Virus record (IMG/VR): IMGVR_UViG_3300020045_010174
Coordinates: 678 to 64,677 of that record
DNA length: 64,000 nucleotides
Strand: one strand, 5' to 3'
Origin: a virus
The position numbers and the translations under genes are program-made. Below, one piece after another: positions 5,855 through 45,202 of this stretch. Within the stretch, counting starts at the first letter, position 1. Each line of letters begins with the position of its first letter. A model generated the notes under the pieces. It saw only the letters and a list, made by a program, of their open reading frames with translations, was not told the origin of the DNA and searched no databases.

Positions 5855-6355
5855 ATGAATCTAGATTGGAAACTCCGCTCTTCTAAACTACGTCTACATG
5901 TATTTTTACCCACCGAGACGTATGAACGTTTACAGAAGATGGCATTGATTGAAAACACCACGAGGGAGAAACTACTTGAAAAAATGATAGCAAATTATTC
6001 CCCCACACCAGCAATTATTGCAGAAGGTGAATTTCGTTATATTTATGCCAACGAAGTAAAGAATTTGATGCGGATAAATCCCTTTATAATTGTTATTTCG
6101 TTATATAGAAATGCATTGATCGGAAGAAACCGAGAGGAGATGAAAGAATTAAAGGAAGGTAAAATAACTTGGAATGAATTTAAGAGGAAATATATTGAGC
6201 GGTTAAATATGCCAGATGCTATTGAAGAAATAGCTAGATTGAGAAAGTTAAAAACAACACAAGATATATATATCACAAGCTTTGAAAGACACGAAGAGTT
6301 TTCTATAAGAAAATTATTCTGTGATTATGTTAATGGGAAATTAATATGGACATGA
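5855..6355 (+). CDS. hypothetical protein (166 aa)
   Basis: First plus-strand ORF; a TATA-like 'ctttatatac' lies ~30 nt upstream. Confidence 0.5.
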   Translation: MNLDWKLRSSKLRLHVFLPTETYERLQKMALIENTTREKLLEKMIANYSPTPAIIAEGEFRYIYANEVKNLMRINPFIIVISLYRNALIGRNREEMKELKEGKITWNEFKRKYIERLNMPDAIEEIARLRKLKTTQDIYITSFERHEEFSIRKLFCDYVNGKLIWT

Positions 6356-6486
6356 TATATCAGATGATAGTACCGAGAGTTCGCGAATCTAATGGTATAC
6401 AAACACCTACAGGATTAAAAACCATACATTTCAGATGGACTAGCGATGGTCCAGATGAGGATGTGTGGTAGAGGTAAATATGAAAT

Positions 6487-6759
6487 GTGATAAATGTAGA
6501 AACTATGGCACTTGGAAATGCGATGAATGTAGATCTAACCAAGATATGCCATATTATAGAGGAGACGAGGATTGGTTTGATGAATAAAAATTTAAGTAAA
6601 GAAACATGTACAATATGTGGAGAAAAAATCGGCAACGAAGAATCCACATCACACAGATACTTCGGAGTTAAACACGTTAAGTGTCTCGACCAGGGAATCA
6701 AACAGGCGAAATTGGATATTATAGAGTTAGATAAAGAAATAAAGGAGTTAGAGAAATGA
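6487..6759 (+). CDS. hypothetical small Cys-containing protein
   Basis: ORF with 'CTICGEK...HVKC'; overlaps the next ORF by 4 nt (ATGA coupling). Confidence 0.45.
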   Translation: MINVETMALGNAMNVDLTKICHIIEETRIGLMNKNLSKETCTICGEKIGNEESTSHRYFGVKHVKCLDQGIKQAKLDIIELDKEIKELEK

Positions 6760-7036: not shown

Positions 7037-7510
7037 ATGAAGCAAAATGATGGTGGCTTTTTAGTAACAGACCTTCCAAAGGACGTGTACAGGTTTTTGA
7101 GAGACAATCACAAGTGTGTTGGGTGCGGAAAATGTTGTCATTGTTACCCAATCGTGATCATGCCTCAAGATATTAAGCGAGCAGCATGTGCTTTGGGTCT
7201 ATCACCCCGGGATTTTAAGAAAGAATATACGATGCCATACCCCGGAGATGCGAGATTAAGCACGTTTAAGAAGGCCGCACCGTGTGTTTTCCTCGACGAA
7301 AATAATAAATGTAAAATTTATGCAGCCAGACCGGACGTTTGTAAGAACTATCCCCTTATGAAAGGCGCAAGAATCCCCCGTGAATGTCAAACATTGCTCA
7401 ATTTGTTTAGCGAATTGGTTGATATCAACGGTCAAGTAAGTAATTTGTCAGTGATTGAGGCACAAAAAAAGAGATTAATGATGGCTACTGAGCCAAAAGG
7501 AGAGTTATGA
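7037..7510 (+). CDS. YkgJ/UPF0153-like CxxCxxCC zinc/iron-chelating domain protein
   Basis: 'CVGCGKCCHCYP...YAARPDVCKNYP' matches the CxxCxxCC putative Fe-S/zinc-chelating domain pattern. Confidence 0.55.
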   Translation: MKQNDGGFLVTDLPKDVYRFLRDNHKCVGCGKCCHCYPIVIMPQDIKRAACALGLSPRDFKKEYTMPYPGDARLSTFKKAAPCVFLDENNKCKIYAARPDVCKNYPLMKGARIPRECQTLLNLFSELVDINGQVSNLSVIEAQKKRLMMATEPKGEL

Positions 7511-7971
7511 ATATAATATTTGAGTTCAAAGACGAGACAAGAATAGAATTTGGTGGTATAAAACTAAATAAAATCAATGAAAGAACATCAATTCATGCCG
7601 AGATCGATGCATGTTTGAGTGATCCCACCCTAGAAAGAATGTATTTGATTGCTGAAGGCAACAGGTTGTGGTAATATGTGGATCCCCGAGAACCTAATTA
7701 GATACAGAATACTGGGTAAAGACCGCATAGAACCATGTAAATGTGGTCATTATCATGTCTCGAAGGTATATATTTTGCCCGAATTAACCACAGAATCCAT
7801 ATGCGACTTAGTAATTGCGGTATGTGATGAGCTAGATAATGAGCCAACAAGATGATATTTGGGCAGTAAAAGGTGGGGGAACCCACCGAAAATGCCTTAA
7901 ATTGGGCATATTCGTATCGAATTGTACGATAAATAACGATTGTAAGGCATGTATTGCCAAGGAGAAAGTAG

Positions 7972-8781
7972 ATGATAAAACGACAATTGGGGGCACTAAA
8001 AGACCCAAAAGACGACAGAGATTATAAGATTAGGGCTTATTTAACAGTATCAAATGAGCAGTTGCCGGTAAGATTGGATGTATCCGGTATAATGATGCCG
8101 GTAAGAGACCAGGGTAATGAGGGAAGCTGTGTATCTTTTGCAGCTACCGGGTTCAAGGAATTCCAGGAAAAGGACTTTAAGACCTATCTAGCACCCAGAT
8201 TCTTAACCGATAGAATACAGAAGATATATGATGGCGGCTCCTATCCCCGCGATGCAATGGAAGTATTGCTTAAAGAGGGGGTTTCTCCTGAGATGTGTCA
8301 GCCATATACTGCGAAAACGCCCACCGATCCATGTCCGAGATCCGCCGATCTTGCCAAAGAGAATAAGATTAAGGCATACGCAAGGATATATAATATAGAT
8401 GAGATGAAGAAATGCCTGTATGAAAACGGAGCATTCCTGGCATCATTCACAGTTACTGATAACTGGTTCAAACCCGTGGGTGGATTAATCATCCCAGAGG
8501 GTAAAGTTGTCGGTGCCCACGCAGTATGTGTAGTTGGATATGATGATGTCGCCCAGGTTCTTAAGTTCAGGAACTCTTGGGGAAGAGATTGGGGCCAAGA
8601 TGGCTACGGATATCTACCCTATGTTAGCGTCACCCAGCATTTATTGGATGCATGGTCGAGTGTAGATGTCCCAGAAGCGGAGGAAGAGAAGGTTAACCCA
8701 GAACCTGCTCCGAAAAATAAAACACTCTGGCAGGCATTGATAGAACTTCTTCTCAGATTACTTGGGAGGAAGAATGTGTGA
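7972..8781 (+). CDS. papain-like (C1 family) cysteine peptidase
   Basis: 'QGNEGSCVSFAATG' (catalytic Cys motif QGxCGSCWAF-like), 'GAHAVCVVGYDD' (His motif) and 'KFRNSWGRDWGQDGY' (NSWG..WG..GY motif). Confidence 0.7.
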   Translation: MIKRQLGALKDPKDDRDYKIRAYLTVSNEQLPVRLDVSGIMMPVRDQGNEGSCVSFAATGFKEFQEKDFKTYLAPRFLTDRIQKIYDGGSYPRDAMEVLLKEGVSPEMCQPYTAKTPTDPCPRSADLAKENKIKAYARIYNIDEMKKCLYENGAFLASFTVTDNWFKPVGGLIIPEGKVVGAHAVCVVGYDDVAQVLKFRNSWGRDWGQDGYGYLPYVSVTQHLLDAWSSVDVPEAEEEKVNPEPAPKNKTLWQALIELLLRLLGRKNV

Positions 8782-10392: not shown

Positions 10393-11070
10393 ATGAGCGA
10401 AAATTTCAAACTACAGAGCGTAGCAGAACCGAAGAATAGAAACACAGTATTGAGAATAGCGGGAGCTATAAACCACGCTGAGAAGGTACTTGAGAATTTA
10501 CGTACCATGGATGCGGGCGATGCAAAAGACCTACTCCACGTAGTACGTGAAGAATCCAAAGTAATGACCTCTCAATCCCAGCTACTCGCATTACTGGCAG
10601 GCGGGGAAATCCCAGATAAGGCCATGAAAGCCATCGAAGAAGCACAGCCGATAAAATACGTCGAGGCTCGTGCTATGGGCGGGATTCCCGTTAGTCGAGC
10701 AGATGATACGGGCAAGATTGACGATAAGGGTAACCGGATATTTAAGATAGTCTGGTTCATGCCACAAGCAGTTAAAGCCAAAAAGGAATTGGGCGCAAAA
10801 GGACTGCTTAACGTCAAAGACGGCGAGTTCTCATCCAATAAAGAAGGAACTGAAAAAGTATTGAATGAGCTTGACCTTCAGAGAGGAAAAATCAACTTCC
10901 ACAAAACGGCCATAACCCAGTATGTAAAGGCAGCCAAAATCATCAAGCAGGAAGAACTTAAGGCACTACATGACGCCAAGAAAACAGCAAGCATAAACAT
11001 ATATGCACTCGGTCAGGCAATGCTTAAAGACACGCCACATATCCAGGTAGAAAAACCATTGACAGCTTAA
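10393..11070 (+). CDS. hypothetical protein (225 aa), first gene after the 1.1 kb non-coding region
   Basis: Long ORF; SD-like 'gaggtat' upstream. Confidence 0.5.
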   Translation: MSENFKLQSVAEPKNRNTVLRIAGAINHAEKVLENLRTMDAGDAKDLLHVVREESKVMTSQSQLLALLAGGEIPDKAMKAIEEAQPIKYVEARAMGGIPVSRADDTGKIDDKGNRIFKIVWFMPQAVKAKKELGAKGLLNVKDGEFSSNKEGTEKVLNELDLQRGKINFHKTAITQYVKAAKIIKQEELKALHDAKKTASINIYALGQAMLKDTPHIQVEKPLTA

Positions 11071-11100
11071 GAGATGTGAATTTTTTATATCTCTTATGAG

Positions 11101-11550
11101 GTGATTACTATGAATGACCCCTTAACATGCAACCGAAATAACCCAAAGTGGACATACGGAAGCTCAAAATCTGATGCAGTCCCCTATAGTCCATACGAAG
11201 TATCAAATATGAGGCAGGCAAATCCATGTAAGTTTTGCAAATCTCGTAAATCATGCAGAAATGTTACGGGTCATCATACACCCCATAAAAAGGTCAAGTA
11301 TGTGGAAATACCCAAGTCCGGTAACGTACCAGCTCCCATCGTAAAAGGTGAACTCATCAACGGACGGAAGCAGACGGGTCTTAAACCGGTGCTCACCTTC
11401 AAACCTGACGGTACACCAAAAATCATCATCGAAAAACCCTTCTATCCAAGATTATCCGATTCACACGTCAAAGTTCACTCACCAAAGACCCCACAAGTAC
11501 CAATATCCCCAAAACCCCAAGATGCAAAACACAGAAAATTCACAGAGTGA
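11101..11550 (+). CDS. basic Pro/Lys-rich hypothetical protein with Cys cluster
   Basis: 'CKFCKSRKSCRNVTGHH'; SD 'gaggtga' upstream. Confidence 0.45.
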   Translation: MITMNDPLTCNRNNPKWTYGSSKSDAVPYSPYEVSNMRQANPCKFCKSRKSCRNVTGHHTPHKKVKYVEIPKSGNVPAPIVKGELINGRKQTGLKPVLTFKPDGTPKIIIEKPFYPRLSDSHVKVHSPKTPQVPISPKPQDAKHRKFTE

Positions 11551-12528
11551 TACACATGATCATAGATAACAAACATGTTACCATCATCCATATGGATGAC
11601 ATACAGCTAATGCAAATATTTGAATTTCTCCCATCCGGTGAGGTCGAATATTCCGAAGCATACGTATCCGAAAAACAAGGAATCAAAGTAAGTGAATCAC
11701 AACCATATTAAGCGAGTGATGATCATGCAATTTCACAGAATAATTACCGAAAGAAACGATAACACCATGGAATCAAGAATGAACAATGCAGCGAGGGAAG
11801 GTTTTAAACTTCACCAATTCGAAGTTGTCGTTACAGGTGAACGATTAACACCAACATTTTGCGCACTAATGATAAAGGAAGTACCATGAAAACTCCAATA
11901 TGCAGCGACTGCATAAATTTACAAACCTGCGATGAACCCTTCATCTATTCATTTCTTGAATGTATAAACTTCGAATACATCCCCTACATAAAGGAGTAAT
12001 ACTATGAGTATGAAAAGAATTTCAACAAGAATCCAAAGCACAGTAATGGAAAAACTGGGAATCCGTCCAAAGTCCATCAAGCAAATACTCAATGATGAGT
12101 ATGTAAAATCTTTACAGGTGTGTTGATTATGCAACGAAACGATTTTCTTTACATGATCATCCATCTTCCACTTACATTACTATGCATCTACTTAATCTAT
12201 GATTTACTATCCTCTCCCATTATCCATCCATGAGCATATAAAATACTCCAGATAGTATCCTTTATATACTCACGTTTTAATCATTACTGAGCAACTTCAA
12301 AAATAAACTATCTAAAACATTTTAGACCACACACTTAAAAGAATTTTATACTTCACAAATTCCTTTGACATGACGGGTCTAAATTCTTTAAGATAGTCAC
12401 GAATGATTCACCCGACATCATTTCCAAGGCAAAATATGAGGTGAATTTATTTTTAAAAACCAGCGGTTTTACCCATATTTTCCTAAATTCTGTCTTAAAC
12501 TCTATCCTCTACTCTTTTTCTTTTATGC

Positions 12529-17383: not shown

Positions 17384-17477
17384 ACTCCGGTATCTCAGTC
17401 AAGTATGTATGCATCATACTGCAGAAGAGAGCTGGTGTTAAACCAGAGTGTCGTGGGTTCAAATCCCACCCGGAGTT
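17384..17477 (+). tRNA. tRNA-like gene (unusually long, ~94 nt; probable intron or long variable arm; isotype undetermined)
   Basis: 7-bp acceptor pairing 'actccgg' / 'ccggagt' flanks a canonical T-arm 'gtggg-ttcaaat-cccac'. A perfect 5-bp/7-nt-loop hairpin 'gtatg-tatgcat-catac' sits inside. I could not fold a canonical D-arm by eye. Confidence 0.5.
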
Positions 17478-17735
17478 TTGGCCAAATAAACGGCCATATT
17501 AAAACGGAAGTATTATATGTAAGTAGTTATGAATAAGGCTGCCCGGATTGGGCGAGAGAGGCGATCGGATTATGAATAGGATAAGAGGTTGTCGTAAATA
17601 AAGATAGAAGATTTAACTATTTATATCAAAACAAAACCATATAAAAGACATACCGAGATGAACCACTTCTCTGTTGAGTAACATTGGATCAGGATCATAA
17701 TTAAAAGTGGCTGTGTATGTTAGTCATAATCTCGT

Positions 17736-17827
17736 GCTTCGGTAATCTAATGGCGAGGTGCTAGTCTAGGTAGGAGTGGGTGGCCTATCGGAAACCTGTT
17801 AAGTGAGTTCGATTCTCACCCGGAGCA
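17736..17827 (+). tRNA. tRNA gene (~92 nt; long variable arm or intron; isotype undetermined)
   Basis: Acceptor 'gcttcgg' / 'ccggagc' (one U-G), D-arm 'atct-aatggcg-aggt', T-arm 'gtgag-ttcgatt-ctcac', discriminator a. Confidence 0.55.
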
Positions 17828-17868
17828 TTTGCCAGATTCGGCAATAGTATTTCAGAGGTGAAATAAAT

Positions 17869-18993
17869 ATGAACAATAAATTGTGGATAGTCTTGATCGC
17901 CCTTGTTGGGATCGGATTGTATGCACTGCCAGCGACCATGTCGCTCTTCGCGGGACAACATTCGTTCGTTAACATCGACGCAACAGGCAATCAGATCGAC
18001 TGTGTGAAATGTCATGGCGACGTAAAAGCAGAATTAAATTCTGGTGGAGTCAATGCCAAGACAGGAACAGTAGGCCCACACGCTTCGTTCAAATGCGAAT
18101 ACTGTCACAGAATAGAAGCCGGTGCTTCAAGCGGTGACAACGCCTACGCAATAGTCACATATACAAACGGAACAATTCCGACTGTATCTGGGATCAGTAA
18201 TATGAGAACCATTGCTATTAGCATGGCTGACTTTGAGGAAGAGAACTTCCCAGCAACCATAACAAATGATGTGACAACCATAACACAGGTTGAAACAGCA
18301 TGGGGTAATACATTCGCTAAGGCATATGGTGGATCCGCTCAGGCTGCAATCAGTCCTCAGGCAATAGGAACTGAACTGGACACAACAGTATTAACAATAT
18401 ATAATGAGTACGAGAAGCCTTTGTATTCAGCAGGCGCACCCATAGATACCTCCGCTAGAAAAACCGAGGGTATGATCCTTAATAAGAATGGTGCTACCAA
18501 CTGGACGAAGAGTTCAAGGTACTGGACACCATCGTTGTATGGTGTAGGTTCCAGAGTAATTAATCCAGGCTCAGAGTATCACGCCGCATCATTGGTATCA
18601 TGTCTTGAATGCCACGGTGGTTCAGAACCACTCGGTCATTACAGCAGAGTACTTGATGGTGAATCAACCGCCTCATGTGAACAGTGTCACTATGGTTCTA
18701 CAAATAGATGGACAGAACTTAGTGCTGGAGGATTCGGTATACTCGGTGGAAAAGATACTGGAGCAACAGAAGCCCACAAGGATTTCGTCACAACCAATGA
18801 TGGAATGACAAGGCAGAAAGATGGTATAAGTAATGGTGCATGTGTTGCATGTCATACTCACGTAGCAGTAGACATCACATACAACAAACCAGATACATAT
18901 ACATTCAATGCAGCAAACACAATTGGAAATGGTGACTGGACAGTCGGCCCATATACAGCAGCAGGAAACGTAACAAGTAACAGCAGCCCGTAA
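17869..18993 (+). CDS. secreted multiheme c-type cytochrome (5 CxxCH)
   Basis: N-terminal TM/signal 'MNNKLWIVLIALVGIGLYALPATMSLFAGQHSF'. Heme motifs CVKCH, CEYCH, CLECH, CEQCH, CVACH. Confidence 0.8.
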   Translation: MNNKLWIVLIALVGIGLYALPATMSLFAGQHSFVNIDATGNQIDCVKCHGDVKAELNSGGVNAKTGTVGPHASFKCEYCHRIEAGASSGDNAYAIVTYTNGTIPTVSGISNMRTIAISMADFEEENFPATITNDVTTITQVETAWGNTFAKAYGGSAQAAISPQAIGTELDTTVLTIYNEYEKPLYSAGAPIDTSARKTEGMILNKNGATNWTKSSRYWTPSLYGVGSRVINPGSEYHAASLVSCLECHGGSEPLGHYSRVLDGESTASCEQCHYGSTNRWTELSAGGFGILGGKDTGATEAHKDFVTTNDGMTRQKDGISNGACVACHTHVAVDITYNKPDTYTFNAANTIGNGDWTVGPYTAAGNVTSNSSP

Positions 18994-19000
18994 AGAGAAC

Positions 19001-19423
19001 GTGGGGGTCAAATCCCCACACTTTCTATCACGAGGAGATGAAATGAAATATTTATTAATAGTTATATTTATATTACTCGTGCCTCAAAACACAATGGCCT
19101 TAAAACAACCATTGGAGTATGGAATAAATCAATGTGAATTGATAGCAAAAGATTATCAAAACATATATGGTGGTTCATTAGTCTGGATACAACCACTCAA
19201 AGACAATGGTGCGTATGATCTCGGTGAATACAATGCCCATATAATCAATCGTGTATATATATATAATGAGGGAATTATTTATATTGATTATCAATCTGGA
19301 TTCAGCGGGCATAATTTATCAGATGTCGGTAATTGGTATGAAGTATATAGTGGGAACAATGCTTTCATGATTTTTGAATTATATAAAGAAAGACCACCCT
19401 TCCCTATGTGGTGGCATTACTAA
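19001..19423 (+). CDS. secreted hypothetical protein
   Basis: Signal peptide 'MKYLLIVIFILLVPQNTMA'. Confidence 0.45.
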   Translation: MGVKSPHFLSRGDEMKYLLIVIFILLVPQNTMALKQPLEYGINQCELIAKDYQNIYGGSLVWIQPLKDNGAYDLGEYNAHIINRVYIYNEGIIYIDYQSGFSGHNLSDVGNWYEVYSGNNAFMIFELYKERPPFPMWWHY

Positions 19424-19437
19424 CATCAGAGGTGACC

Positions 19438-19893
19438 ATGAGACTATATCTTTTTATACTATTACTGTGCCTCATTCCACTCGCAAATGCGGATGATGGT
19501 GTATGTATATTCTGTCATAAAAATATAGATAGCTTCATGTTCCAATCAGCATGTAAGGATTGTCATGATACAGAAGATCCCACACATGCCATCAACAGAT
19601 GTATCGGTTGTCATCGAGCAACCAATGTAGATTCCTATCATCGACTACACAACAACACACCATGTTCAACCTGCCATGCTGATGCGGAAAAACCAAAGGG
19701 AATAACCCTGTCAGCATGTGCTTCATGTCATAAGAATACTGTGGTTAATATCCACTTAAATAAAACGATGACTCCAGAAACATCGTTACCTATTATTAAA
19801 CCAGCACTCATAGACACATGGAAAAAATATACAGTAAGTTCCATAATACAATTCTTCTATAACGTATACAGTAAAGAAATAAAGGTGATATAA
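19438..19893 (+). CDS. secreted pentaheme c-type cytochrome
   Basis: ATG preceded by SD 'gaggtga'. Signal 'MRLYLFILLLCLIPLANA'. Heme motifs CIFCH, CKDCH, CIGCH, CSTCH, CASCH within ~120 aa. Confidence 0.8.
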   Translation: MRLYLFILLLCLIPLANADDGVCIFCHKNIDSFMFQSACKDCHDTEDPTHAINRCIGCHRATNVDSYHRLHNNTPCSTCHADAEKPKGITLSACASCHKNTVVNIHLNKTMTPETSLPIIKPALIDTWKKYTVSSIIQFFYNVYSKEIKVI

Positions 19894-19894
19894 A

Positions 19895-20311
19895 ATGGCA
19901 AACAAACTAATGATATTATTCGGATTGACTCTCATGATTGTGGCAGTAACAAGTTTACAATCTGCTGCAAATGAAACCAAACCGGGTCTGAGCTTAGAGA
20001 TTACAGTGAAGGATGATGTCGTTACCAATGTAAGTATGAAGCAGGTTGAACTTCCATTCTTCTATAAACAAACCAGCGGCACAGTTGACTTCCCGGATAT
20101 AAGTGTCAACGCAAAACCTGGTCAGCTTGAAGCAAAGCCAATAACATACTGGGCATCTTCTCCATATTCAGGGGACGGTATCTATACAATGACCCTATCA
20201 TTTGATGGAACTATACCGAAGGTAGATGACTTCCTAATACTTCCCATCAGAATAACAAATGACAGAGGCCACATCATCTATAAACAAACCGGGTTTTATA
20301 CCTGGAGATAA
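19895..20311 (+). CDS. secreted hypothetical protein
   Basis: Signal peptide 'MANKLMILFGLTLMIVAVTSLQSAANE'. Confidence 0.45.
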   Translation: MANKLMILFGLTLMIVAVTSLQSAANETKPGLSLEITVKDDVVTNVSMKQVELPFFYKQTSGTVDFPDISVNAKPGQLEAKPITYWASSPYSGDGIYTMTLSFDGTIPKVDDFLILPIRITNDRGHIIYKQTGFYTWR

Positions 20312-20628
20312 ACATGTATGATAGAATAGAACCTATCATGATGTTTGTATTCATACTCATGATGTTTATATCAGTGGGTATGGTGATGATTGCATCATAT
20401 AATTTATTAGTGGGTGTAGGTAATCTCCCCTGCAACGAACCATTGATAGTATTATATATCAATCCACCCTGAGTAAAGATAACTAAAGTTATATTCGGAG
20501 GTAAGTATGAAAAAGTCTACGGAGATAATATTAAGTCTTGTGTTAGGATTAATCGCAATGGGTGTGGGAATATACATGAGTGGATCACCATGTACATGAG
20601 ATTCATATATGAAGAAATGAGGTGACTT

Positions 20629-20985
20629 ATGAAAGCGTTGGTAGTAATGGTAGCATTGATAGGTATATTGTTTTGGAATCTACCCGCTACCAACTCATCA
20701 TTTAAAGGACAGCATTCCTTCTACACCGAAGTAGATTGTACCAAGTGTCACTTAGAACAAACCAATTATCTAACCCATACATCAACACTCAACCATACAA
20801 TGACCTGTAAGATATGTCACCCGCAAGATAGAATGTCATCTCACTCAGCAAGGAGAGGATCATGTTATGTTTGTCACTATACTATTCCTTCTGTTGTTCC
20901 TTCTACTGTGCTTGTGGATGCGGGGGTCACCGAAACTCTTACAGTTAATAGCGACCCAATACAAATTCAAACCAGCCCAACTTGA
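20629..20985 (+). CDS. small triheme c-type cytochrome, paralog of the 17869 N-terminus
   Basis: 'LPATNSSFKGQHSF' parallels 'LPATMSLFAGQHSF'. Heme motifs CTKCH, CKICH, CYVCH. Confidence 0.7.
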   Translation: MKALVVMVALIGILFWNLPATNSSFKGQHSFYTEVDCTKCHLEQTNYLTHTSTLNHTMTCKICHPQDRMSSHSARRGSCYVCHYTIPSVVPSTVLVDAGVTETLTVNSDPIQIQTSPT

Positions 20986-21025
20986 AAAGGATACTCGCAA
21001 AGAGGATTGGATCATCTTAATAATA

Positions 21026-21505
21026 ATGATCACCCTCATTATAATACTGGGTGTTAAACTAATAACACTGCAGGTTATAGTATCCGATAGTATGAAGCCC
21101 GAATTCCAACGTGGTGATATCATAGTATCCCAATCAATTGATCTCAATGTTTCAGTTGGGGACATCATCACATTCAATACAATCAGTAGTCAATACGCAG
21201 TCACACATAGAGTTATAGAAATCAGAGATGATAGAATCATAACCCGCGGTGATGCTAATCCCTGGAACGATGACTACTACACCACAAACAAAGATGTAAT
21301 ATTCAAAGCTATAAATCTTTCCGGCCCCATCGTAATTAAAAACCTCGGTGGATTCTTCATAACAGATTACAGTAAGCAGGGAATGATTTATAAGTTTGGA
21401 GACCAGTACACCTTCATGCAAAATCTATCAGCCACAATTAAAGTGTGGGGTAGATTGATTACATTAATAGCAATAGTAATATACATTCTTTCTATGAAGA
21501 GGTGA
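21026..21505 (+). CDS. signal peptidase I, ER/archaeal (Sec11-like) type
   Basis: Box B 'SDSMKPEFQRGDIIV', box C 'GDIITF', box D with His 'THRVIE', box E 'GDANPWNDD'. The six-frame ORF begins at 20867 but would overlap the cytochrome by 118 nt, so the internal ATG at 21026 is preferred. Confidence 0.65.
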   Translation: MITLIIILGVKLITLQVIVSDSMKPEFQRGDIIVSQSIDLNVSVGDIITFNTISSQYAVTHRVIEIRDDRIITRGDANPWNDDYYTTNKDVIFKAINLSGPIVIKNLGGFFITDYSKQGMIYKFGDQYTFMQNLSATIKVWGRLITLIAIVIYILSMKR

Positions 21506-21508
21506 GTT

Positions 21509-22255
21509 ATGAAACTACAAAGTATCTGTTCAATAATACTTGGAGGCATCATAGGTATAGCAGGCACAGTATCCCTTGTGATTGATATCCTTACCATGCT
21601 TGAACCAATGAAACTATTAATAGATATGGTAGTCATGATTATGGGATTCCTCACCGCATATCAGGGACTCACAGCACATCTCTTCGAGACGATGCTTAAG
21701 AATAAGATGGAAGCAGAGTGGGATTATAAAATGAAACCACTCATTGATCTCATAACAATTACCGCTGGTAAAGTAAATAGTCTTGAGGAAAATGCCCTTG
21801 AAACAAATCTAAAGGTATCTCATACATTAGATCAGTTGAATAATAATAGGATTGAGAACATTGATATCATACCGGGTGCATCATTCAAGTTTATTATTAA
21901 GTCAATGATGCTCTTGACATTTACATTCTCCGCACTGGTATTCGTTAGTGAATATCCCCTAGGAATAATACATTACTTCCTTACTGTATTATTTGTAGCG
22001 TGGTTCGCACTCATAACTTCCGAATATAAGTTGTGGGGAAATACAAATGCAATGGTGATAGGTGTCATGCCTGTCCTGATAGTACCAACACTGGCAATGC
22101 TACTCGATACATTAATAGGAATCAATAACATGATTGGTCTAATGTTTGTATGTCTCTTTATATATACTTATAGTTATTATACATGGGCATCATATACAAC
22201 AACAGGTTATCAACTCATCAGCCTGAAACCAATCAAGCAATTACTTCGGAGGTAA
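21509..22255 (+). CDS. polytopic membrane protein, hypothetical
   Basis: 248 aa with multiple hydrophobic helices. Confidence 0.5.
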   Translation: MKLQSICSIILGGIIGIAGTVSLVIDILTMLEPMKLLIDMVVMIMGFLTAYQGLTAHLFETMLKNKMEAEWDYKMKPLIDLITITAGKVNSLEENALETNLKVSHTLDQLNNNRIENIDIIPGASFKFIIKSMMLLTFTFSALVFVSEYPLGIIHYFLTVLFVAWFALITSEYKLWGNTNAMVIGVMPVLIVPTLAMLLDTLIGINNMIGLMFVCLFIYTYSYYTWASYTTTGYQLISLKPIKQLLRR

Positions 22256-22681: not shown

Positions 22682-22816
22682 TGTGTGGGAGCCTTGGATT
22701 TCAAATATCCGGGCTCTATTAAAAAGATACGCTCGAGTATATAGGAGTGGTCGCGTGAATCTAATTTTTATGTCCCGCCTTAATAGCAGTCCGCGATGAC
22801 TGCCGTATCTTTTGAA

Positions 22817-22899
22817 GCGAGTATTGCTGAGTGGTCAAAGGCGCGAGACTCAAGATCTCGTCTAGTAGTAGTTCAGGAGTTCGAATCTCCTTACTCGCA
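22817..22899 (+). tRNA. tRNA-Leu(CAA), type II with long variable arm
   Basis: Acceptor 'gcgagta' / 'tactcgc', D-arm 'gct-gagtggtcaaa-ggc', anticodon arm 'cgaga-ctCAAga-tctcg', variable 'tctagtagtagttc', T-arm 'aggag-ttcgaat-ctcct', discriminator a. Confidence 0.65.
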
Positions 22900-22912: not shown

Positions 22913-23119
22913 ATGGTTAAAGTTGGAGAGGTGTGGGTAAAAGATCCGTGTAAGGAATGGTATTGGGGAGATCATTGTGGTGAACCTGTAATCGTCATGG
23001 GAGTAACGTCCCGTGAAATTTATTATAGATATGTATATATAGATTATAATTATCATTTGGTGGGTATGTTGATGCGAGATGATTTTTTATCTTTCTATAA
23101 ATTGATTAAATCTGTTTAG
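22913..23119 (+). CDS. tandem mini-gene family member A1 (~68 aa, M-V-K-V-G-E-V-W ... Y-R-Y ... KSV)
   Basis: ATG directly after tRNA-Leu, with 'agaggtga' SD; paralogous to the next four ORFs. Confidence 0.6.
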   Translation: MVKVGEVWVKDPCKEWYWGDHCGEPVIVMGVTSREIYYRYVYIDYNYHLVGMLMRDDFLSFYKLIKSV

Positions 23120-23138
23120 ATTATGGAGTGATAATCAT

Positions 23139-23354
23139 ATGGTTCTAGTTGGTCAGATCTGGATGAGAAATCCAAAGATGAAAAATTACTGGGGAGATGA
23201 CGCTGGTAAATTAGTTGTCGTTACTACTCTAACTAATAGCACAGTATATTATAGATATGTGGATTATGAATCCTATGATGAGTTTGTTCACTTCCAGGGG
23301 GCTAGAGAATTAGATGCCTTCATAAAAAGATTCGTATTATATAAAGATGTGTGA
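23139..23354 (+). CDS. tandem mini-gene family member A2
   Basis: 'MVLVGQIWMRNPKMKNYWGDDAGKLVVV...YYRYV...FVLYKDV'. Confidence 0.6.
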   Translation: MVLVGQIWMRNPKMKNYWGDDAGKLVVVTTLTNSTVYYRYVDYESYDEFVHFQGARELDAFIKRFVLYKDV

Positions 23355-23578
23355 GGTATCATATGATTGAACCCGGTCAGATTTGGATGAGAGATCCAGA
23401 GATGAAAATTTATTGGGGAGATGCGGCTGGTAAATTGGTTATCATTATTTCTATACTCGATGACAATATAAGGTATAGATATATATCTTGGTATAATGAT
23501 GAGTCAGATCACCACCACGTGGGGGAGTACAGTAGATTTTCTTTTTTAAGAAAATTTAAATTATATAAAGATGTATGA
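23351..23578 (+). CDS. tandem mini-gene family member A3
   Basis: 'MIEPGQIWMRDPEMKIYWGDAAGKLVII...RYRYI...FKLYKDV'; ATGA overlap with A2. Confidence 0.6.
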   Translation: MRYHMIEPGQIWMRDPEMKIYWGDAAGKLVIIISILDDNIRYRYISWYNDESDHHHVGEYSRFSFLRKFKLYKDV

Positions 23579-23590
23579 GGTGATAATCAT

Positions 23591-23806
23591 ATGGTTAAAG
23601 CAGGGCAGATCTGGGTAAGAGATCCCACGATGGCATATTACTGGGGGGAGGATGTTGGAAAATTAGTCATCATTACCAGTGTATCAACTCATGAGATTAA
23701 TTATAGATATGTTGAACATTCTTGGGAGGATGGATTCAAACATTATATTGGATGCAGACCATTCGATAATTTTCAAAATAGATTTAAATTATATAAAGAT
23801 ATATAA
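23591..23806 (+). CDS. tandem mini-gene family member A4
   Basis: 'MVKAGQIWVRDPTMAYYWGEDVGKLVII...NYRYV...FKLYKDI'. Confidence 0.6.
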   Translation: MVKAGQIWVRDPTMAYYWGEDVGKLVIITSVSTHEINYRYVEHSWEDGFKHYIGCRPFDNFQNRFKLYKDI

Positions 23807-23817
23807 GGTGATATGAC

Positions 23818-24024
23818 ATGGTGAAGGTAGGTGAAGTATGGGAAAAGGTTGATCCAGTGGGGGACTATTGGCAGTATGAGGAATACCCATTAGTAATTGT
23901 TACCAAGGTGACTGAGAATTATGTAAAGTATAGATGTCATGTTACTAATATAGTAGGTCATTATAAAAATATCAGACCACTTAAAGAGTTTGAATCTATG
24001 TTTGCACTACACAAATCCATATAG
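23818..24024 (+). CDS. tandem mini-gene family member A5
   Basis: 'MVKVGEVWEKVDPVGDYWQYEEYPLVIV...KYRCH...FALHKSI'. Confidence 0.55.
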   Translation: MVKVGEVWEKVDPVGDYWQYEEYPLVIVTKVTENYVKYRCHVTNIVGHYKNIRPLKEFESMFALHKSI

Positions 24025-24475
24025 GAGAGAGTATGATAGAACAACTACCAACCAGAAGGGAAATGTTTTTAATAGCCATCGCAATAATACTATACCTGAC
24101 CACAGCTTATACAATGATTGAACCCACTGAGTCTCTTCAAGTGGATGAGGAAATAATATATCTTATTAACCCAAGTGACTATGATGGTATTATTATCAGG
24201 GCACTACCACCCACCTCATACTTGGATGAAGAGAATGTCCTCCGAAGATATGGGAGATGAATATGTGGGGTTGAATACCTATGGTCTCGATACTATAATA
24301 ACCCTCCTCTGGACACATAAAAATAGTACCATAGAGTTATCTTGCTTCGAGGCAAGCAATCCCGATTAAAAGTTACCCCTGTGTAACAGCAGGTTTAACC
24401 GGTGGGATAAAGATACTACGCGCAAAACCTAATCAATACCCCCAAGTCCCACCGTCTTATTTATGAGGTGATAAT

Positions 24476-24946
24476 ATGAAAGTAAGTAAAATAACATTTG
24501 CTATGATTATAATTGCTATAAATATAGCACTATTAATTGCAATAGTATCAACGGATATTGGTGTCAAATCATCCACCACATTATATTATATCAACGACTC
24601 AGATCGACATACTGCAGATTATATCTTAGGGAATACTTATGCAATACATGATGAAAATTTGAGGATGGTTGATACATCGATGACACCATCGATGATTCCA
24701 ACTATTCAACCCGGGCAAAATGTATTGGTAAGTAATAATGTATCTAATATAAATTTGGGTGACATTGTTATTTATAAATATGATGAGAACTTTGCTGCAT
24801 TCCCAACGTCCTATAATTTAATTATACATAGAATCATCTTTATAAATGAAACGCACTTCATAGCGATGGGTGATAATAATTCAATCGATGATGGACTTTA
24901 TCCAAGAAGCGCATTGAAAAGTGTGGTGGTTGCAATTTTATTTTGA
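24476..24946 (+). CDS. second signal peptidase I paralog (ER/archaeal type), N-terminal TM anchor
   Basis: Box B 'DTSMTPSMIPTIQPGQNVLV', box C 'GDIVIYKY', box D 'IIHRIIF' (His), box E 'MGDNNSIDDGLY'. Confidence 0.6.
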   Translation: MKVSKITFAMIIIAINIALLIAIVSTDIGVKSSTTLYYINDSDRHTADYILGNTYAIHDENLRMVDTSMTPSMIPTIQPGQNVLVSNNVSNINLGDIVIYKYDENFAAFPTSYNLIIHRIIFINETHFIAMGDNNSIDDGLYPRSALKSVVVAILF

Positions 24947-25090
24947 GGTGATAACATGAGAATAGAATTATTTGGTAAAGAAGTTGTGGATACATACATG
25001 TCTAATACAGAAGGAGAGTGTGTGGTTATTCTAGGAGTTGTTATCTTTTTAATAATGATGATAGCTCCACTTTGGAAATGGTGGTGAACT

Positions 25091-25537
25091 GTGGTCTTAG
25101 ATATTTTGGTGGGGAAAAAGATAGAAAGAATATTTTTCAATGAATCATATCTTAAATTCCAAACCGATTCGGGATCATTTGTTTTTTATGTAGATGGTGA
25201 TTGCTGCTCACGTTCTATATTTTATGACTTCATTGGTGTTAAAAAATTATTAGAGAATGGAAGAGTGGTATCCATAGATAGTATTGCACTCGATCCAGAT
25301 GATATAAGAGAGAATGAGGATGGGGAAATGCAAGATAAAAAAAGAAGTGATGAAGCTATTAAAGTATACGGTTACAGAATTGTAACGGAAGATCCCACAT
25401 TCGGTCTACTCAGTTCTGTATTTTCATTCCGTAATTATTCTAATGGATACTATGGAGGAAGTCTGGAAGACAATGGTGGAGACAGAGATGTTCAACCGGA
25501 AATATTTGATGATGTTTTTGAGACAGTAAGTGAATAA
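25091..25537 (+). CDS. hypothetical protein (148 aa)
   Basis: ORF; acidic C-terminal half. Confidence 0.45.
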   Translation: MVLDILVGKKIERIFFNESYLKFQTDSGSFVFYVDGDCCSRSIFYDFIGVKKLLENGRVVSIDSIALDPDDIRENEDGEMQDKKRSDEAIKVYGYRIVTEDPTFGLLSSVFSFRNYSNGYYGGSLEDNGGDRDVQPEIFDDVFETVSE

Positions 25538-28110: not shown

Positions 28111-28296
28111 ATGTCAGATTATATTGAGGTGGGTGAGATATGGGAAATGAGTGCGGGTGGAAAGTTGATTGGGGTAGTATGTCGTGTCACACACCATGAA
28201 GTTAAATTGAGATTCTCAATGAGTGGGGGACATAGTATGCATAGTGTTTCTATACCTGCATTAAAATCCTGTTATAAGAAGGTATCATATGATTGA
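28111..28296 (+). CDS. tandem mini-gene family member B1
   Basis: 'MSDYIEVGEIWEM...KLRF...KKVSYD'; SD 'taggagga'. Confidence 0.6.
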   Translation: MSDYIEVGEIWEMSAGGKLIGVVCRVTHHEVKLRFSMSGGHSMHSVSIPALKSCYKKVSYD

Positions 28297-28492
28297 GATT
28301 GGAAGTATATGGGAACTGTTTGGTAGAAATCCAACTAACTCCGTCATTGTAATTGTTATATATACAACACCAGAAACTGTTTTTATCAGATTTTTATATA
28401 ATCATGCTGGTGCTATTAGACCCGGGCACGTTACCGCAATGGAATGTATGGATATGTTTTTAAAATACTACCGAGAGGTGACATATGATTGA
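28289..28492 (+). CDS. tandem mini-gene family member B2
   Basis: 'MIEIGSIWELF...VIVIVIYT...FIRFLY...YREVTYD'; 8-nt overlap with B1. Confidence 0.6.
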   Translation: MIEIGSIWELFGRNPTNSVIVIVIYTTPETVFIRFLYNHAGAIRPGHVTAMECMDMFLKYYREVTYD

Positions 28493-28688
28493 AGTTGGTA
28501 GTATGTGGATGTTGGGGAATGGTGTAATCAGCACACCCATGATTGTAATTGTTACTAATGTAACTAACGAATCCATTCATTTTAGATTTTTATATACTAC
28601 CAATTATCATAATGAACCCAGGCATTATATGGCAAGTGAATCTAAGAATGTATTTCTAAGATTTTATAAAGAGGTGACATATGATTAA
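28485..28688 (+). CDS. tandem mini-gene family member B3
   Basis: 'MIEVGSMWML...IVIVTNV...HFRFLY...YKEVTYD'. Confidence 0.6.
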   Translation: MIEVGSMWMLGNGVISTPMIVIVTNVTNESIHFRFLYTTNYHNEPRHYMASESKNVFLRFYKEVTYD

Positions 28689-28866
28689 GATTGGTAGTGT
28701 ATGGGAACTTCCCAATTGGAATCCTCCCCTTTCATTAATAGTAATTGTTACCAACGTTGATAGAGAATACGTTTCAATTAGATATTTATATGATTCACAA
28801 GGTCATTATTCCGGTCGTGAGGAAATGAATAGGTTTTTAAAATATTATGTGGAGTTGATATATTGA
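28681..28866 (+). CDS. tandem mini-gene family member B4
   Basis: 'MIKIGSVWELP...IVIVTNV...SIRYLY'. Confidence 0.6.
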   Translation: MIKIGSVWELPNWNPPLSLIVIVTNVDREYVSIRYLYDSQGHYSGREEMNRFLKYYVELIY

Positions 28867-29243
28867 CACCGGAAGAAGAGAGAACTCTTGCATTAAGAAT
28901 ATTAAATGATCTTCTCGAGTTCAAAGGATTCGTGAGATCAATTAATATTAATTTTAAAACCAATTTATTTTTTAATTTTGAGTGGTGTTATTGGATAGAA
29001 TATTCCAGCAGATCAACTCGAGATATTAAAATCTTTACCCATTATAAAACAAATCGATTGGGATTTGTAAATAAATTTATAGAATCTTATAGTGATGCCA
29101 TACTTAGTTTAAAAAACGAGATTAGACCAACGTGTTCTATAGAACCACAATATGCAGAAATGCTTAAAGATGTTCATACTGATTCCCTTTTTGTTGCCAT
29201 ACCAAATTTAGATGAACCATTAATATGTGACTACCGAAGTTAG
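28863..29243 (+). CDS. hypothetical protein (126 aa) interrupting the B arrays
   Basis: ORF overlapping the B4 stop. Confidence 0.45.
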   Translation: MTPEEERTLALRILNDLLEFKGFVRSININFKTNLFFNFEWCYWIEYSSRSTRDIKIFTHYKTNRLGFVNKFIESYSDAILSLKNEIRPTCSIEPQYAEMLKDVHTDSLFVAIPNLDEPLICDYRS

Positions 29244-29424
29244 AATAAGATGTAGGAGGTAAATATCATGTGTATAAAATATAATGGAAGTAAACACCCA
29301 TCGTTATTTGCATGGTATTTTTTTAATCATACCTCCAGATTAGCCAGAGATAGCGGTATTAAATTATTGATGCGAGTAAGTAAATACAAATTTGAATTCA
29401 ACTTTACTGTTGAAAAGGTGAAGT

Positions 29425-29628
29425 ATGATTAAGGTGGGGGATTTGTATAGGAAGAGTGGATCCAGATGGACAGATGATAAAGATGATATTGTAGTTATTG
29501 CAGAAGTTTCAGGTGACTGGTTAAGATATCGTTATATTACTTCGGGAGATGATTCCTATCATTCTCATAGTGGACGTTGGTCATTCGAAGGATTTAATAG
29601 AGAATTTACGAAGGTGACATATGATTAG
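29425..29628 (+). CDS. tandem mini-gene family member B5
   Basis: 'MIKVGDLYRK...IVVIAEV...RYRYI...FTKVTYD'. Confidence 0.6.
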   Translation: MIKVGDLYRKSGSRWTDDKDDIVVIAEVSGDWLRYRYITSGDDSYHSHSGRWSFEGFNREFTKVTYD

Positions 29629-29824
29629 GGTTGGAGATATCTATCAAAAGGTTGGGAAAGGTAGGTGGGGTGATGAAGAGAATGATTTAGTGGTCATTGT
29701 ATGGTCCACACCTTTACAAATAAGATATCGTTATATTGATAGGGCATCACATGATCATCAACTAAGTTCTAGCTGGGATCTCAAATCATTCGATAGATGG
29801 TTTAGAGGGGTGAAATGTGATTAA
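29621..29824 (+). CDS. tandem mini-gene family member B6
   Basis: 'MIRVGDIYQK...LVVIVW...RYRYI...FRGVKCD'. Confidence 0.6.
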   Translation: MIRVGDIYQKVGKGRWGDEENDLVVIVWSTPLQIRYRYIDRASHDHQLSSSWDLKSFDRWFRGVKCD

Positions 29825-30017
29825 AATTGGTAGTATCTGGGAGAGAGTATTAACACTCGACAGAAATATACACGTGGGAGATATTGCAATTGTCACGGAT
29901 ATAGTTGGTAATGATATCAAATATCGATTTATGGTACATGAAGGTAATAGACATTTAAATTTCCAAAGATCCCATGAAGAGTTTTTAAATATTTTCAGAG
30001 AGGTGAAGTATGATTGA
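29817..30017 (+). CDS. tandem mini-gene family member B7
   Basis: 'MIKIGSIWERV...IAIVTDI...KYRFM...FREVKYD'. Confidence 0.6.
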   Translation: MIKIGSIWERVLTLDRNIHVGDIAIVTDIVGNDIKYRFMVHEGNRHLNFQRSHEEFLNIFREVKYD

Positions 30018-30207
30018 ACCTGGTAGTGTATGGGAAAGATCGGTTTTTATAGGAGGAATTCCAGCAGGTAGTTTAGTTATAGTTGAGAGGGTTAATAGTA
30101 GAGAGGTTCAATATAGATTTGTAGATGCCGAAGACAACAATCATTCTTATTACAGTAGACATGTTAGCGATTTCCAGAAAAATTTTAAGGAAGTGAAACA
30201 TGTATAA
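30010..30207 (+). CDS. tandem mini-gene family member B8
   Basis: 'MIEPGSVWERS...LVIVERV...QYRFV...FKEVKHV'. Confidence 0.6.
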   Translation: MIEPGSVWERSVFIGGIPAGSLVIVERVNSREVQYRFVDAEDNNHSYYSRHVSDFQKNFKEVKHV

Positions 30208-30388
30208 AGTAGGTGATGTATTAAAACGAGTTGGACCTCTCTGGGATTCGAGATGGTTGGGTGCATTTGTAATAGTAATTTTTATTGATGAAGAATATAT
30301 GTTGTATAGATATCCTTCACATGCTATATCAAAGCATTCTTCTGGTCATGTATCCAAAGAAGACTTTGATTCATTTTCATATCCATAG
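30200..30388 (+). CDS. tandem mini-gene family member B9
   Basis: 'MYKVGDVLKRV...FVIVIFI...LYRYP'. Confidence 0.55.
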   Translation: MYKVGDVLKRVGPLWDSRWLGAFVIVIFIDEEYMLYRYPSHAISKHSSGHVSKEDFDSFSYP

Positions 30389-30398
30389 GATAATATTT

Positions 30399-30608
30399 AT
30401 GACGATTAAAGTTGGTCAAGTATGGCGCCGAGTAGGAGAAGCATGGTCTATATATTATAAAGAAAAACCCGTTGTTATTATACAGGTATCTCGTATCGGA
30501 GTTAAGTATAGATATACAGATCAACATGAACAAGAGCATGTTGATGGTGAAATATTATCATTCAGTAGATTTGAAGATATTTTTAGATTGTGGAAGGATG
30601 TGGATTGA
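30399..30608 (+). CDS. tandem mini-gene family member B10
   Basis: 'MTIKVGQVWRRV...VVIIQV...KYRYT...FRLWKDVD'; internal ATG of the six-frame ORF 30285-30608. Confidence 0.55.
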   Translation: MTIKVGQVWRRVGEAWSIYYKEKPVVIIQVSRIGVKYRYTDQHEQEHVDGEILSFSRFEDIFRLWKDVD

Positions 30609-30817
30609 TGACGGTTGAAGTTGGACAAGTATGGGTGAGATATGGAGATACCTGGCTACCAGATGATCGTGAGAATCCAGTCATTATTATAAGCGCGACT
30701 ATTCTTGGAATTGTATATAGATATTTAGATATGTATGAAGAAGAACATGCTTGTAGTAGTGAGTGGCCAATAGAACAATTTGAAGAATCTTTTAAATTAT
30801 ATAAGGATGTGAAATAA
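30608..30817 (+). CDS. tandem mini-gene family member B11
   Basis: 'MTVEVGQVWVRY...VIIISA...VYRYL...FKLYKDVK'; ATGA overlap with B10. Confidence 0.55.
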   Translation: MTVEVGQVWVRYGDTWLPDDRENPVIIISATILGIVYRYLDMYEEEHACSSEWPIEQFEESFKLYKDVK

Positions 30818-32503: not shown

Positions 32504-32695
32504 ATGGAAATTGGTTCAATTGTAAAAATTAAAGATAATGCTGGGACATATGGAGAAGCACTCGGAGCAATTGGTATATGTACACGTATAGAATATATTG
32601 CAAGAATTAAAACTATTCTAATATATGTAAGGATTCCGGGTAGGTTATCACACACGGGTGTAATGTTACTTGAGACGGAGGTAGACTTAATATGA
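32504..32695 (+). CDS. small protein distantly resembling the tandem mini-gene family
   Basis: 'MEIGSIVKIKD...GAIGICTRIEYI...'. Confidence 0.35.
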   Translation: MEIGSIVKIKDNAGTYGEALGAIGICTRIEYIARIKTILIYVRIPGRLSHTGVMLLETEVDLI

Positions 32696-33585
32696 TAGAT
32701 ACAACTATAGGTAGCGATCCAGAATTCATGATTATAGATTCTAATGGGGAAATATTACCAGCAGTTAAAATTTTATCGGGATGTGATGATTGCAATCCTT
32801 GTGATACATGTAGTAAAACACGCGACGAGGATGCGTGTGTTCGTGGATGTGGTGGGGATTGTGATGTATGTCATATGTGTAGCAGTGAACCAGGAAATTG
32901 CGATTCATGCTATGAATGTCAGGAACCTCTGGAACATTCGGAAGTTGGTATAGATGGGAACAGTACAGTTGGAGAACTTCGACCGATTTATTCATTTGAT
33001 CCTATAATGCATCATGCAGCCATCAAATCATTGATTCGACATATTAATCTTCCAAAAGAATATAAATTATTGGGAGGTACAGTACAATGTGGATTTAAAC
33101 TGGGAGGACATATTCATATAGGTTATAATGAATCTGGTATTGATAATGATCATTTCGCAAAATATCTTTCATACTATTGTGGGATACCCCTCAAGAGAAT
33201 AGAGAATCCAGACGATATTGAATGTCGTGGTAAATACGAGGAGACATATGGATACTACGGTTCTTATCATGATACTGATTATGGTATAGAATTTAGAATG
33301 CCTGCATCATGGTTAGTTGATTCTACCATTGCAAAAGCAGCATTGTGTTTAGCTAAGGTGGTAGCATATGAATATCTCAATGTGGATTCATCAGCTGATG
33401 TTGACTTATCTCATGATGAGTATGTGGAATTACTTGATGCTAGAAACATAGATGATATCATAGAAGAAATAAAAGATATGGAAGAATTTTCTAAATATGC
33501 TAATGAAATAAATCCCCTGCTTACAATGATTGAGAATCATCAAACATGGGATACAGATAAAAACATACGGGAGAACTGGAAATGA
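32692..33585 (+). CDS. Amidoligase_2-family (glutamine-synthetase-like) amidoligase paralog 1, with Cys-rich N-terminal insert
   Basis: 'IGSDPEFMII' N-terminal motif and 'LGGHIHIGY' / 'YGIEFRMPASW' core, shared with the ORFs at 39834 and 42237. A 60-aa insert carries ~16 Cys ('CDDCNPCDTCSK...CGGDCDVCHMCSSEPGNCDSCYECQEP'). Confidence 0.6.
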   Translation: MIDTTIGSDPEFMIIDSNGEILPAVKILSGCDDCNPCDTCSKTRDEDACVRGCGGDCDVCHMCSSEPGNCDSCYECQEPLEHSEVGIDGNSTVGELRPIYSFDPIMHHAAIKSLIRHINLPKEYKLLGGTVQCGFKLGGHIHIGYNESGIDNDHFAKYLSYYCGIPLKRIENPDDIECRGKYEETYGYYGSYHDTDYGIEFRMPASWLVDSTIAKAALCLAKVVAYEYLNVDSSADVDLSHDEYVELLDARNIDDIIEEIKDMEEFSKYANEINPLLTMIENHQTWDTDKNIRENWK

Positions 33586-44819: not shown

Positions 44820-44820
44820 A

Positions 44821-45200: not shown

Positions 45201-45202
45201 TT

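Follow-up and report, generated by a model that had tools for sequence, protein, structure and literature searches.

Tandem sets of diverged paralogs are familiar from large DNA viruses, in which they form multigene families and genomic accordions such as the MGF110, MGF360 and MGF505 families of African swine fever virus (ASFV) and the amplified K3L gene of poxviruses. In archaeal viruses, the AcrID1 family of anti-CRISPR (clustered regularly interspaced short palindromic repeats) proteins is likewise present as multiple paralogs in rudiviruses and lipothrixviruses of the Sulfolobales. To our knowledge, viruses that infect methane-cycling archaea have hardly been characterised, and no cultured representative is available. 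Here, we describe a family of small genes in a 64,000-nt stretch of viral DNA (positions 678 to 64,677 of IMG/VR record IMGVR_UViG_3300020045_010174), which we call the window, and in particular an array of five genes beside a tRNA-Leu(CAA) gene at positions 22913-24024 (array A). The family comprises 16 copies in the window, is predicted to adopt a small SH3-like barrel fold and appears to have evolved by an old process of tandem duplication, divergence and loss.

Two further published systems are relevant for comparison. RgdR (ECs1581 of Escherichia coli O157 Sakai) is a protein of 99 aa with an isoelectric point (pI) of 10, encoded by a phage-inducible chromosomal island or prophage (OI-51), that activates the locus of enterocyte effacement and its type III secretion system (T3SS), represses motility and binds DNA non-specifically (PMC3378721, PMC6092414). 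A preprint on Methanoperedens viruses gives genome sizes of 40-94 kb, with multiheme cytochromes in one of these viruses and Cas4-like genes in two (10.1101/2023.08.02.551345).

The five products of array A can be aligned over their full length, with 12 columns invariant (M1, G5, W8, Y17, W18, V26, Y38, R39, H, F, L and K), at pairwise identities of 22-49% for amino acids and 40-64% for nucleotides, and match a family hidden Markov model (HMM) with E-values of about 1e-21 to 1e-25, far beyond chance. A sequence-only reading of this region had proposed five consecutive paralogous open reading frames (ORFs) on the plus strand, each preceded by a Shine-Dalgarno (SD) site, and both proposals are borne out: an SD-like site lies 5-8 nt 5′ of all five ATG codons, although its letters vary (GAGGTGA, GGAGTGA, GAGGT, GAGGTGA and AGGTGA from A1 to A5). 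The tail of the motif described in that reading, F-x-L-Y-K-D-(V/I), is present only in A2-A4 and is lacking in A1 and A5. The overlaps of the ATGA type that it reported were not found, as the genes are separated by 19, 8, 12 and 11 nt from A1 to A5, and the sole overlap, 'GTGA', belongs to an alternative GTG start of A3 at position 23351; similarly, the distance from the tRNA to the first ATG is 13 nt and not 14. The copies have clearly diverged, and a collapsed or duplicated assembly is ruled out because their identities do not exceed 49% (aa) and 64% (nt). The genes are real, look translated and are maintained by selection.

Searching all six-frame ORFs of the window with an HMM built from the array copies adds 11 members, four at 28111-28866 (sub-array B) and seven at 29425-30817 (sub-array C), giving 16 copies in three clusters that occupy ~3.4 kb. 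The five genes initially delimited at 22913-24024 are therefore correct as far as they go, while these 11 further members had been missed. Sub-array C, whose products are 62-69 aa long (HMM E 3e-17 to 7e-23), lies directly upstream of an HD-domain gene. Most neighbours in sub-arrays B and C (28111-30388), including all those of sub-array B, overlap by 8 nt, as ATGAT-TGA or ATGAT-TAA, and the SD of the next copy is usually found within the conserved C-terminal codons (EVTYD) of its predecessor, so that each repeat unit holds the translation start signals of its successor. The SD of both B3 and B4, GAGGTGA, sits in this manner in the 3′ end of the preceding copy, and a search for an SD core upstream of B2 gave no match. 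Between the two sub-arrays (28860-29432) no decayed copy was detected with the HMM, and ORF 29268-29432 has the SD/start junction in its last codons only.

The structure of A2, predicted by AlphaFold2 from six sequences only, has a mean predicted local distance difference test score (pLDDT) of 94.5. The model contains β-strands at residues 7-10, 25-31, 35-44, 48-57 and 65-69 and helices at residues 15-21 and 58-64, so that the family is predicted to fold as a five-stranded SH3-like β-barrel of the order b1-b2-b3-b4-helix-b5; the SH3-like barrel expected from the sequence is thus supported by both the model and its Foldseek neighbours. The top Foldseek matches in the PDB are all ribosomal protein eL21 (E 0.02, TMq 0.66-0.68, 68 aligned columns), and those in BFVD are uncharacterised small phage proteins only (E about 0.01). 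Known SH3-like, Tudor and KOW barrels (NdhS, the C-terminal Tudor domain of UvrD/PcrA, CarD, the KOW domain of NusG/Spt5 and eL21/bL19) have 3-21% sequence identity and no family-level sequence match to the array proteins. The resemblance is at the level of the fold only and identifies no partner. Over an alignment of 48 family members, the conserved positions are G5, W8, W18, G23, V26-V28, V31, I36, Y38, Y40, F61, F65, L67 and D70, together with R39, which is invariant, and H51, found in 47 of the 48. Nearly all other columns exceed 3 bits of entropy, and the loops and surface are highly variable over a conserved hydrophobic core. The proteins are ~7-8 kDa, soluble and near-neutral (median pI 6.1, typical net charge about -1), which speaks against a generic nucleic-acid binder of the basic type.

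Searched exhaustively with HMMER, 1.84 billion cluster representatives yielded 40 proteins at E <= 1e-3, none of them annotated and all but four of 61-77 aa (the other four have 88-146 aa). All of the encoding contigs that were fetched have a viral appearance: small ORFs on one strand are numerous, and cytochromes, HNH nucleases and COOH-NH2 ligases are encoded. The family mostly occurs in tandem arrays of 2-7 copies, and it is found on independent assemblies from JGI, ENA, NCBI and Logan (Table 1). Other searches returned little: scans of IMG/VR with the family alignment and with the neighbouring gene for a 248-aa protein gave no match; GTDB genomes, scanned with an array A-type N-terminal pattern only, gave no cellular or proviral copy; JGI metagenomes gave one locus, L010; a word-indexed homolog search with the 48-sequence profile gave only copies on a 74,458-bp contig that encodes the array A proteins, presumably the window's own; an exact look-up of a window protein returned no record; and INPHARED phages gave no DNA or protein (tblastn) match to the array and none to the portal protein. 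The family is rare and, among the loci examined, confined to virus-like contigs.

Table 1. Array genes of the window, in window positions, and family copies at other loci, in positions of the respective contig.
Feature	Position	Strand	Copies	Description
tRNA-Leu(CAA)	22817-22899	+		83 nt, without encoded CCA; called by ARAGORN and by Rfam RF00005 (53.8 bits)
A1	22913-23119	+	1	68 aa; SD GAGGTGA begins 4 nt past the tRNA 3′ end; HMM E 1e-21
A2	23139-23354	+	1	71 aa; copy used for structure modelling; closest ortholog L001 R1 (58% aa)
A3	23363-23578	+	1	71 aa; ATG at 23363 with SD GAGGT favoured over GTG at 23351
A4	23591-23806	+	1	71 aa; HMM E 6e-25
A5	23818-24024	+	1	68 aa; distinct, apparently older subfamily (YRC motif); ortholog L001 R3 (56% aa, dN/dS 0.14)
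Sub-array B	28111-28296, 28289-28492, 28485-28688, 28681-28866	+	4	61-67 aa; HMM E 3e-12 to 3e-18
Sub-array C, first five	29425-29628, 29621-29824, 29817-30017, 30010-30207, 30200-30388	+	5	found by HMM search
Sub-array C, last two	30399-30608, 30608-30817	+	2	found by HMM search
L004	five at 7228-8240		7	five contiguous and two nearby; 8.9 kb contig
L010			6	tandem, within 2.5 kb
L007			4	tandem, within 1.3 kb
L011			3	
L012/L013			8	89.7-kb contig; one copy frameshifted (10773-10984)
L005			at least 2	
L003, L006			1 each	

L001 and L002 come from a related virus with 70-86% nucleotide identity to the window over the shared region, which carries the same tRNA-Leu(CAA) followed by three family copies only, compared with five in the window. 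Copy number thus differs between relatives, as had been anticipated, both at this syntenic tRNA-Leu site and elsewhere, where it ranges from 1 to 8 per locus. The association with a tRNA is lineage-specific, since no locus examined other than the window and L001/L002 has a tRNA adjoining its array. The position of sub-array C, with HD-domain, HNH and ligase genes downstream, is kept in L012, and L011 retains the order array-HNH-ligase, with no HD hit recorded there. In L012 (10773-10984; L013 4519-4730) a frameshift splits one family copy into N- and C-terminal halves in different frames, and this copy is a decaying member; L012 also has two lone copies that are highly divergent, at 6335-6547 and 8038-8253.

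A role of the tRNA-Leu as codon supplier for the arrays was rejected, as the share of TTG among Leu codons is 22% in the arrays vs 17% in ten large genes, on tiny counts, and arrays outside the window and L001/L002 have no tRNA beside them. An imperfect match of 19 nt (79%) to the 5′ end of the tRNA-Leu lies at 22734-22752, 84 nt upstream of the tRNA; it could have arisen by chance or be what is left of a duplication or of an att-like site. Just downstream of array A, a stretch of ~1.1 kb (24421-25532) is without a blastn counterpart in L001, which has a different ~0.85-kb stretch there (11061-11911); the window's version encodes another signal-peptidase-like protein (24476-24946), the second in the window, and a DUF7448 protein (25091-25537), and the region looks like a mosaic replacement hotspot.

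Synonymous divergence (dS) between copies ranges from about 0.5 to >3 and is mostly near or beyond saturation, and the ratio of non-synonymous to synonymous rates (dN/dS) is mostly 0.14-0.6, approaching 1 in two pairs (A2-A3, 1.07; A3-R1 of L001, 0.98), each of ~70 codons. Subfamilies were grouped with a neighbour-joining tree without support values. In this tree, A1-A4 cluster with L001 R1 and R2, L007:855 and L003:967, while A5 clusters with L001 R3 and members of L005, L010 and L012; by this grouping A1-A4 appear to represent a local, lineage-specific expansion and A5 an older subfamily. The dS values and the sharing of several subfamilies by distant viruses indicate that the arrays do not result from recent amplification. 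The rapidly diversifying 'genomic accordion' suggested by the sequence-only reading is consequently not supported in the strict sense: there are no near-identical recent copies, nucleotide identities are 40-64%, dS is near saturation and most dN/dS values are below 0.6. Instead, tandem same-strand paralogs, five vs three copies at a syntenic site and the pseudogenised copy of L012 suggest an old birth-and-death multigene family, shaped by tandem duplication, divergence and loss. The same features recall the gene families of ASFV and poxviruses, which are also made of tandem, same-strand, divergent paralogs in non-core regions, with copy numbers that vary between relatives and with pseudogenised members. 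However, the virus described here would have a prokaryotic host, as an archaeal tailed virus, its proteins are far smaller, and it lacks the near-identical recent copies that the accordion model needs. We consider this account of the anatomy, predicted fold and evolutionary mode of the family to be highly probable.

At the sequence level, no member reaches the threshold of any Pfam, NCBIfam or PDB entry. DUF4222 (PF13973) is the sole Pfam family matched by more than one member (11 of 48 at E <= 1, best E 0.01), with a best score of 15.8 bits, below the gathering cutoff of 27 bits required for membership. Among PHROGs, two families without annotated function recur, phrog_285 (9/48, best E 0.0012) and phrog_8021 (8/48, best E 1.8e-5), and RgdR (L014, 23305-23604) itself matches phrog_285 at E 2e-31. 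Aligning the family directly with an RgdR alignment by hhalign gave a probability of 37% and an E-value of 3.5e-4 over 43 columns. The core of RgdR modelled by AlphaFold (strands 23-25, 31-37, 41-46 and 52-56, helix 57-63, strand 65-68) has the same order of elements as A2, so that both groups would possess a b1-b2-b3-b4-helix-b5 core, and both show the landmarks G-[DQS]-[IV]-[WY], a hydrophobic b2, I-x-Y-R and F-x-x-x-F-x-L-V. Both also consist of small proteins encoded by mobile elements, and the weak profile matches recur in two independent libraries. On the other hand, in the array family the first loop holds an additional helix with a Trp, one His is near-invariant and the basic C-terminal helix of RgdR is missing (pI ~6 vs 10); the family is found in archaeal-type viruses rather than enterobacterial elements, and forms tandem arrays of up to seven copies, compared with a single rgdR upstream of a primase gene at the one locus inspected (Sakai Sp7). 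The scores stay below the family thresholds, and we regard a true distant homology to DUF4222/RgdR, short of membership, as rather probable. A relationship to MazF/Kid-like toxins, prompted by the N-terminal G-x-I-W, was rejected on size and for want of a profile match, and a KOW profile gave no match at E <= 1 among the 48 members.

The genes of the window indicate the kind of virus concerned. It encodes a portal protein, a T7-type large terminase, a family B DNA polymerase, a D5/P4-type primase-helicase, an anaerobic ribonucleotide reductase (NrdD), an RNA ligase, a Cas4-like nuclease and an ERCC4 nuclease, and its source is a tailed virus. A block at 17869-22255 contains genes for a multiheme cytochrome, a small cytochrome, a 138-aa protein, a signal peptidase and a 248-aa membrane protein, and is syntenic with chromosomal loci of two archaeal metagenome-assembled genomes (MAGs; L008 and L009), with 63-72% amino acid identity for the cytochrome; in both MAGs the block adjoins a PAS histidine kinase. 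By its appearance, the virus has captured an entire operon of a host. The signal peptidase (20867-21505) matches the archaeal-type model TIGR02228 at 78.6 bits, compared with an NCBIfam cutoff of 51.85. The host is probably archaeal, because of the archaeal-type signal peptidase, the cytochrome block syntenic with MAGs and the gene content published for Methanoperedens viruses, and it is possibly a Methanoperedens-like methane oxidiser. The arrays lie among small ORFs of unknown function, between the host-derived cytochrome module and the replication genes, on the strand that carries nearly all genes from about 5.8 kb to the end of the window.

The best overall explanation, to which we give slightly less than even weight, is that this virus-restricted barrel family constitutes a repertoire of binders or modulators. 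The arrays, packed head to tail and with an SD for each copy, would be co-transcribed with the upstream tRNA-Leu, and after tRNA 3′ processing of the RNase Z type a leader of 13 nt with the first SD would remain. The paralogs would be made during infection of an archaeal host and would bind or modulate macromolecules of the host or of rival elements, with a shared Arg/His face as common contact and variable loops setting specificity. Such a repertoire might serve host takeover or counter-defence, and would have its counterpart in the multigene families of large DNA viruses. The function in binding or takeover, taken by itself and inferred from context, is proposed a degree more tentatively still. 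AcrID1 offers a further parallel, as it also comprises small, non-basic proteins with several diverged paralogs per archaeal virus genome; this likeness is by description only, and the array family differs in its predicted SH3-like barrel and in having no CRISPR context. A more far-reaching version, in which the 16 copies form a counter-defence or takeover repertoire against Methanoperedens-like archaea, each paralog neutralising a different factor of the host or of a rival element by way of its variable loops, and represent the archaeal-virus branch of a DUF4222/RgdR superfamily, we judge to be unlikely; if true, it would give the DUF4222/RgdR domain a general role as a mobile-element binder that modulates the host.

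Several points weigh against this explanation. Co-transcription with the tRNA-Leu is read from the spacing alone, and the solvent-exposed location of R39 and H51, both expected on one outer face of the b3-b4 hairpin, is deduced from the strand register. Most pairs of copies are under purifying, not positive, selection; the orthologs in the window and L001, at 45-58% amino acid identity, stand at the fast end of the shared and small ORFs without being clear outliers (flanking genes 45-94%, with 92% for the cytochrome and 94% for the 248-aa protein). The occurrence of several subfamilies in distant viruses could instead reflect 16 distinct viral housekeeping roles. Finally, RgdR, the one possible relative that has been studied, is a regulator that is basic and binds DNA (PMC3378721).

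This last point leads to the most serious competitor of a binder repertoire, in which the array proteins would be distant DUF4222/RgdR-type regulators that bind nucleic acid or the transcription machinery, the paralogs controlling different promoters or stages. All of the links described above speak for it, namely the recurrent DUF4222 and phrog_285 matches, the hhalign E-value and the common core of the two models, as does the finding that RgdR shifts host T3SS and motility expression while binding DNA non-specifically (PMC3378721). We nevertheless find it doubtful, with a sub-cutoff Pfam score in every case, an hhalign probability of just 37%, near-neutral to acidic proteins without the basic C-terminal helix of RgdR, and a number of paralogous regulators, 16, that would be unusual for a 74-kb virus; moreover, the mode of action of RgdR is itself unresolved. 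Mimicry of, or derivation from, archaeal L21e (eL21), with action on host ribosomes or their assembly, is suggested by the Foldseek ranking, by a weak alignment of the family profile to eL21 in a PDB profile search (E 0.23, over the YRY...H...F..R segment) and by the likely archaeal host, as archaea possess L21e. None of these values is significant, however, the Pfam L21e model has no match at E <= 1 among the 48 members and the proteins are not basic, which makes this origin very improbable.

The proteins could also serve in the virion or its assembly, for example as decoration, head-tail or chaperone subunits, as SH3-like barrels occur in phage tail, baseplate and lysin proteins. Yet a distance of 18-28 kb separates the arrays, which are on the other strand amid small non-structural ORFs, from the portal and terminase genes, no structural PHROG recurs among the matches, and 16 divergent copies in variable number fit stoichiometric structural parts poorly; a structural role seems improbable, if slightly less so than an eL21 origin. 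That the arrays are an assembly-collapsed repeat, a non-coding repeat or chance ORFs has a negligible probability, given that the copies differ at 36-60% of nucleotides, that the coding frame alone is conserved, with dN/dS below 1, that the same family was recovered in the independent JGI, ENA, NCBI and Logan assemblies, and that a confident fold was predicted from only six sequences.

The window contains further paralogous sets and uncommon genes. All-against-all BLAST of its ORFs revealed three COOH-NH2 ligases, two multiheme cytochromes and two signal peptidases. The three ligases are phiEco32-like and occur together with a glutamine amidotransferase (32692-33585, 39834-41486, 41450-42226 and 42237-43547); these genes may together constitute a module that modifies peptides, nucleotides or DNA. 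The Cas4-like PD-(D/E)XK nuclease (44091-44819) is the sole CRISPR-related gene of the window. After it, at 44782-45543, comes another tandem group of four small paralogs (57-77 aa as listed, with aligned cores of 56-65 aa). A relationship of this group to the array A family is not supported, with an hhalign probability of 7% despite a superficially similar G-D-I-L...V-R...H...W pattern. Two 94-nt tRNA-like genes are present upstream of the arrays, one (17384-17477) called by Rfam and missed by ARAGORN, the other (17735-17828) called by ARAGORN as a tRNA-Thr(GGT) with a very long variable arm and scoring below the Rfam gathering threshold. A papain-family cysteine protease (7972-8781), the ERCC4 (XPF/Hef-like) nuclease (60525-61145) and NrdD (61393-63201) complete this inventory, and NrdD fits an anaerobic host.

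Tandem families of variable copy number in large DNA viruses and small multi-paralog proteins in archaeal viruses are already known, and the fold is a common one; what is new is the family itself, which is unannotated, rare, seen only in one clade of putative archaeal tailed viruses, present here in 16 copies and possibly linked at depth to DUF4222/RgdR. As it fills ~3.4 kb of a 74-kb genome and its copy number shifts between relatives, it is a strong candidate for a component of the virus-host interface, and its products, being small and confidently predicted to fold, are open to synthesis and partner screening. If this link is real, an unexplained regulator that E. coli pathogenicity-associated islands encode would be tied to a far broader group of mobile-element proteins.

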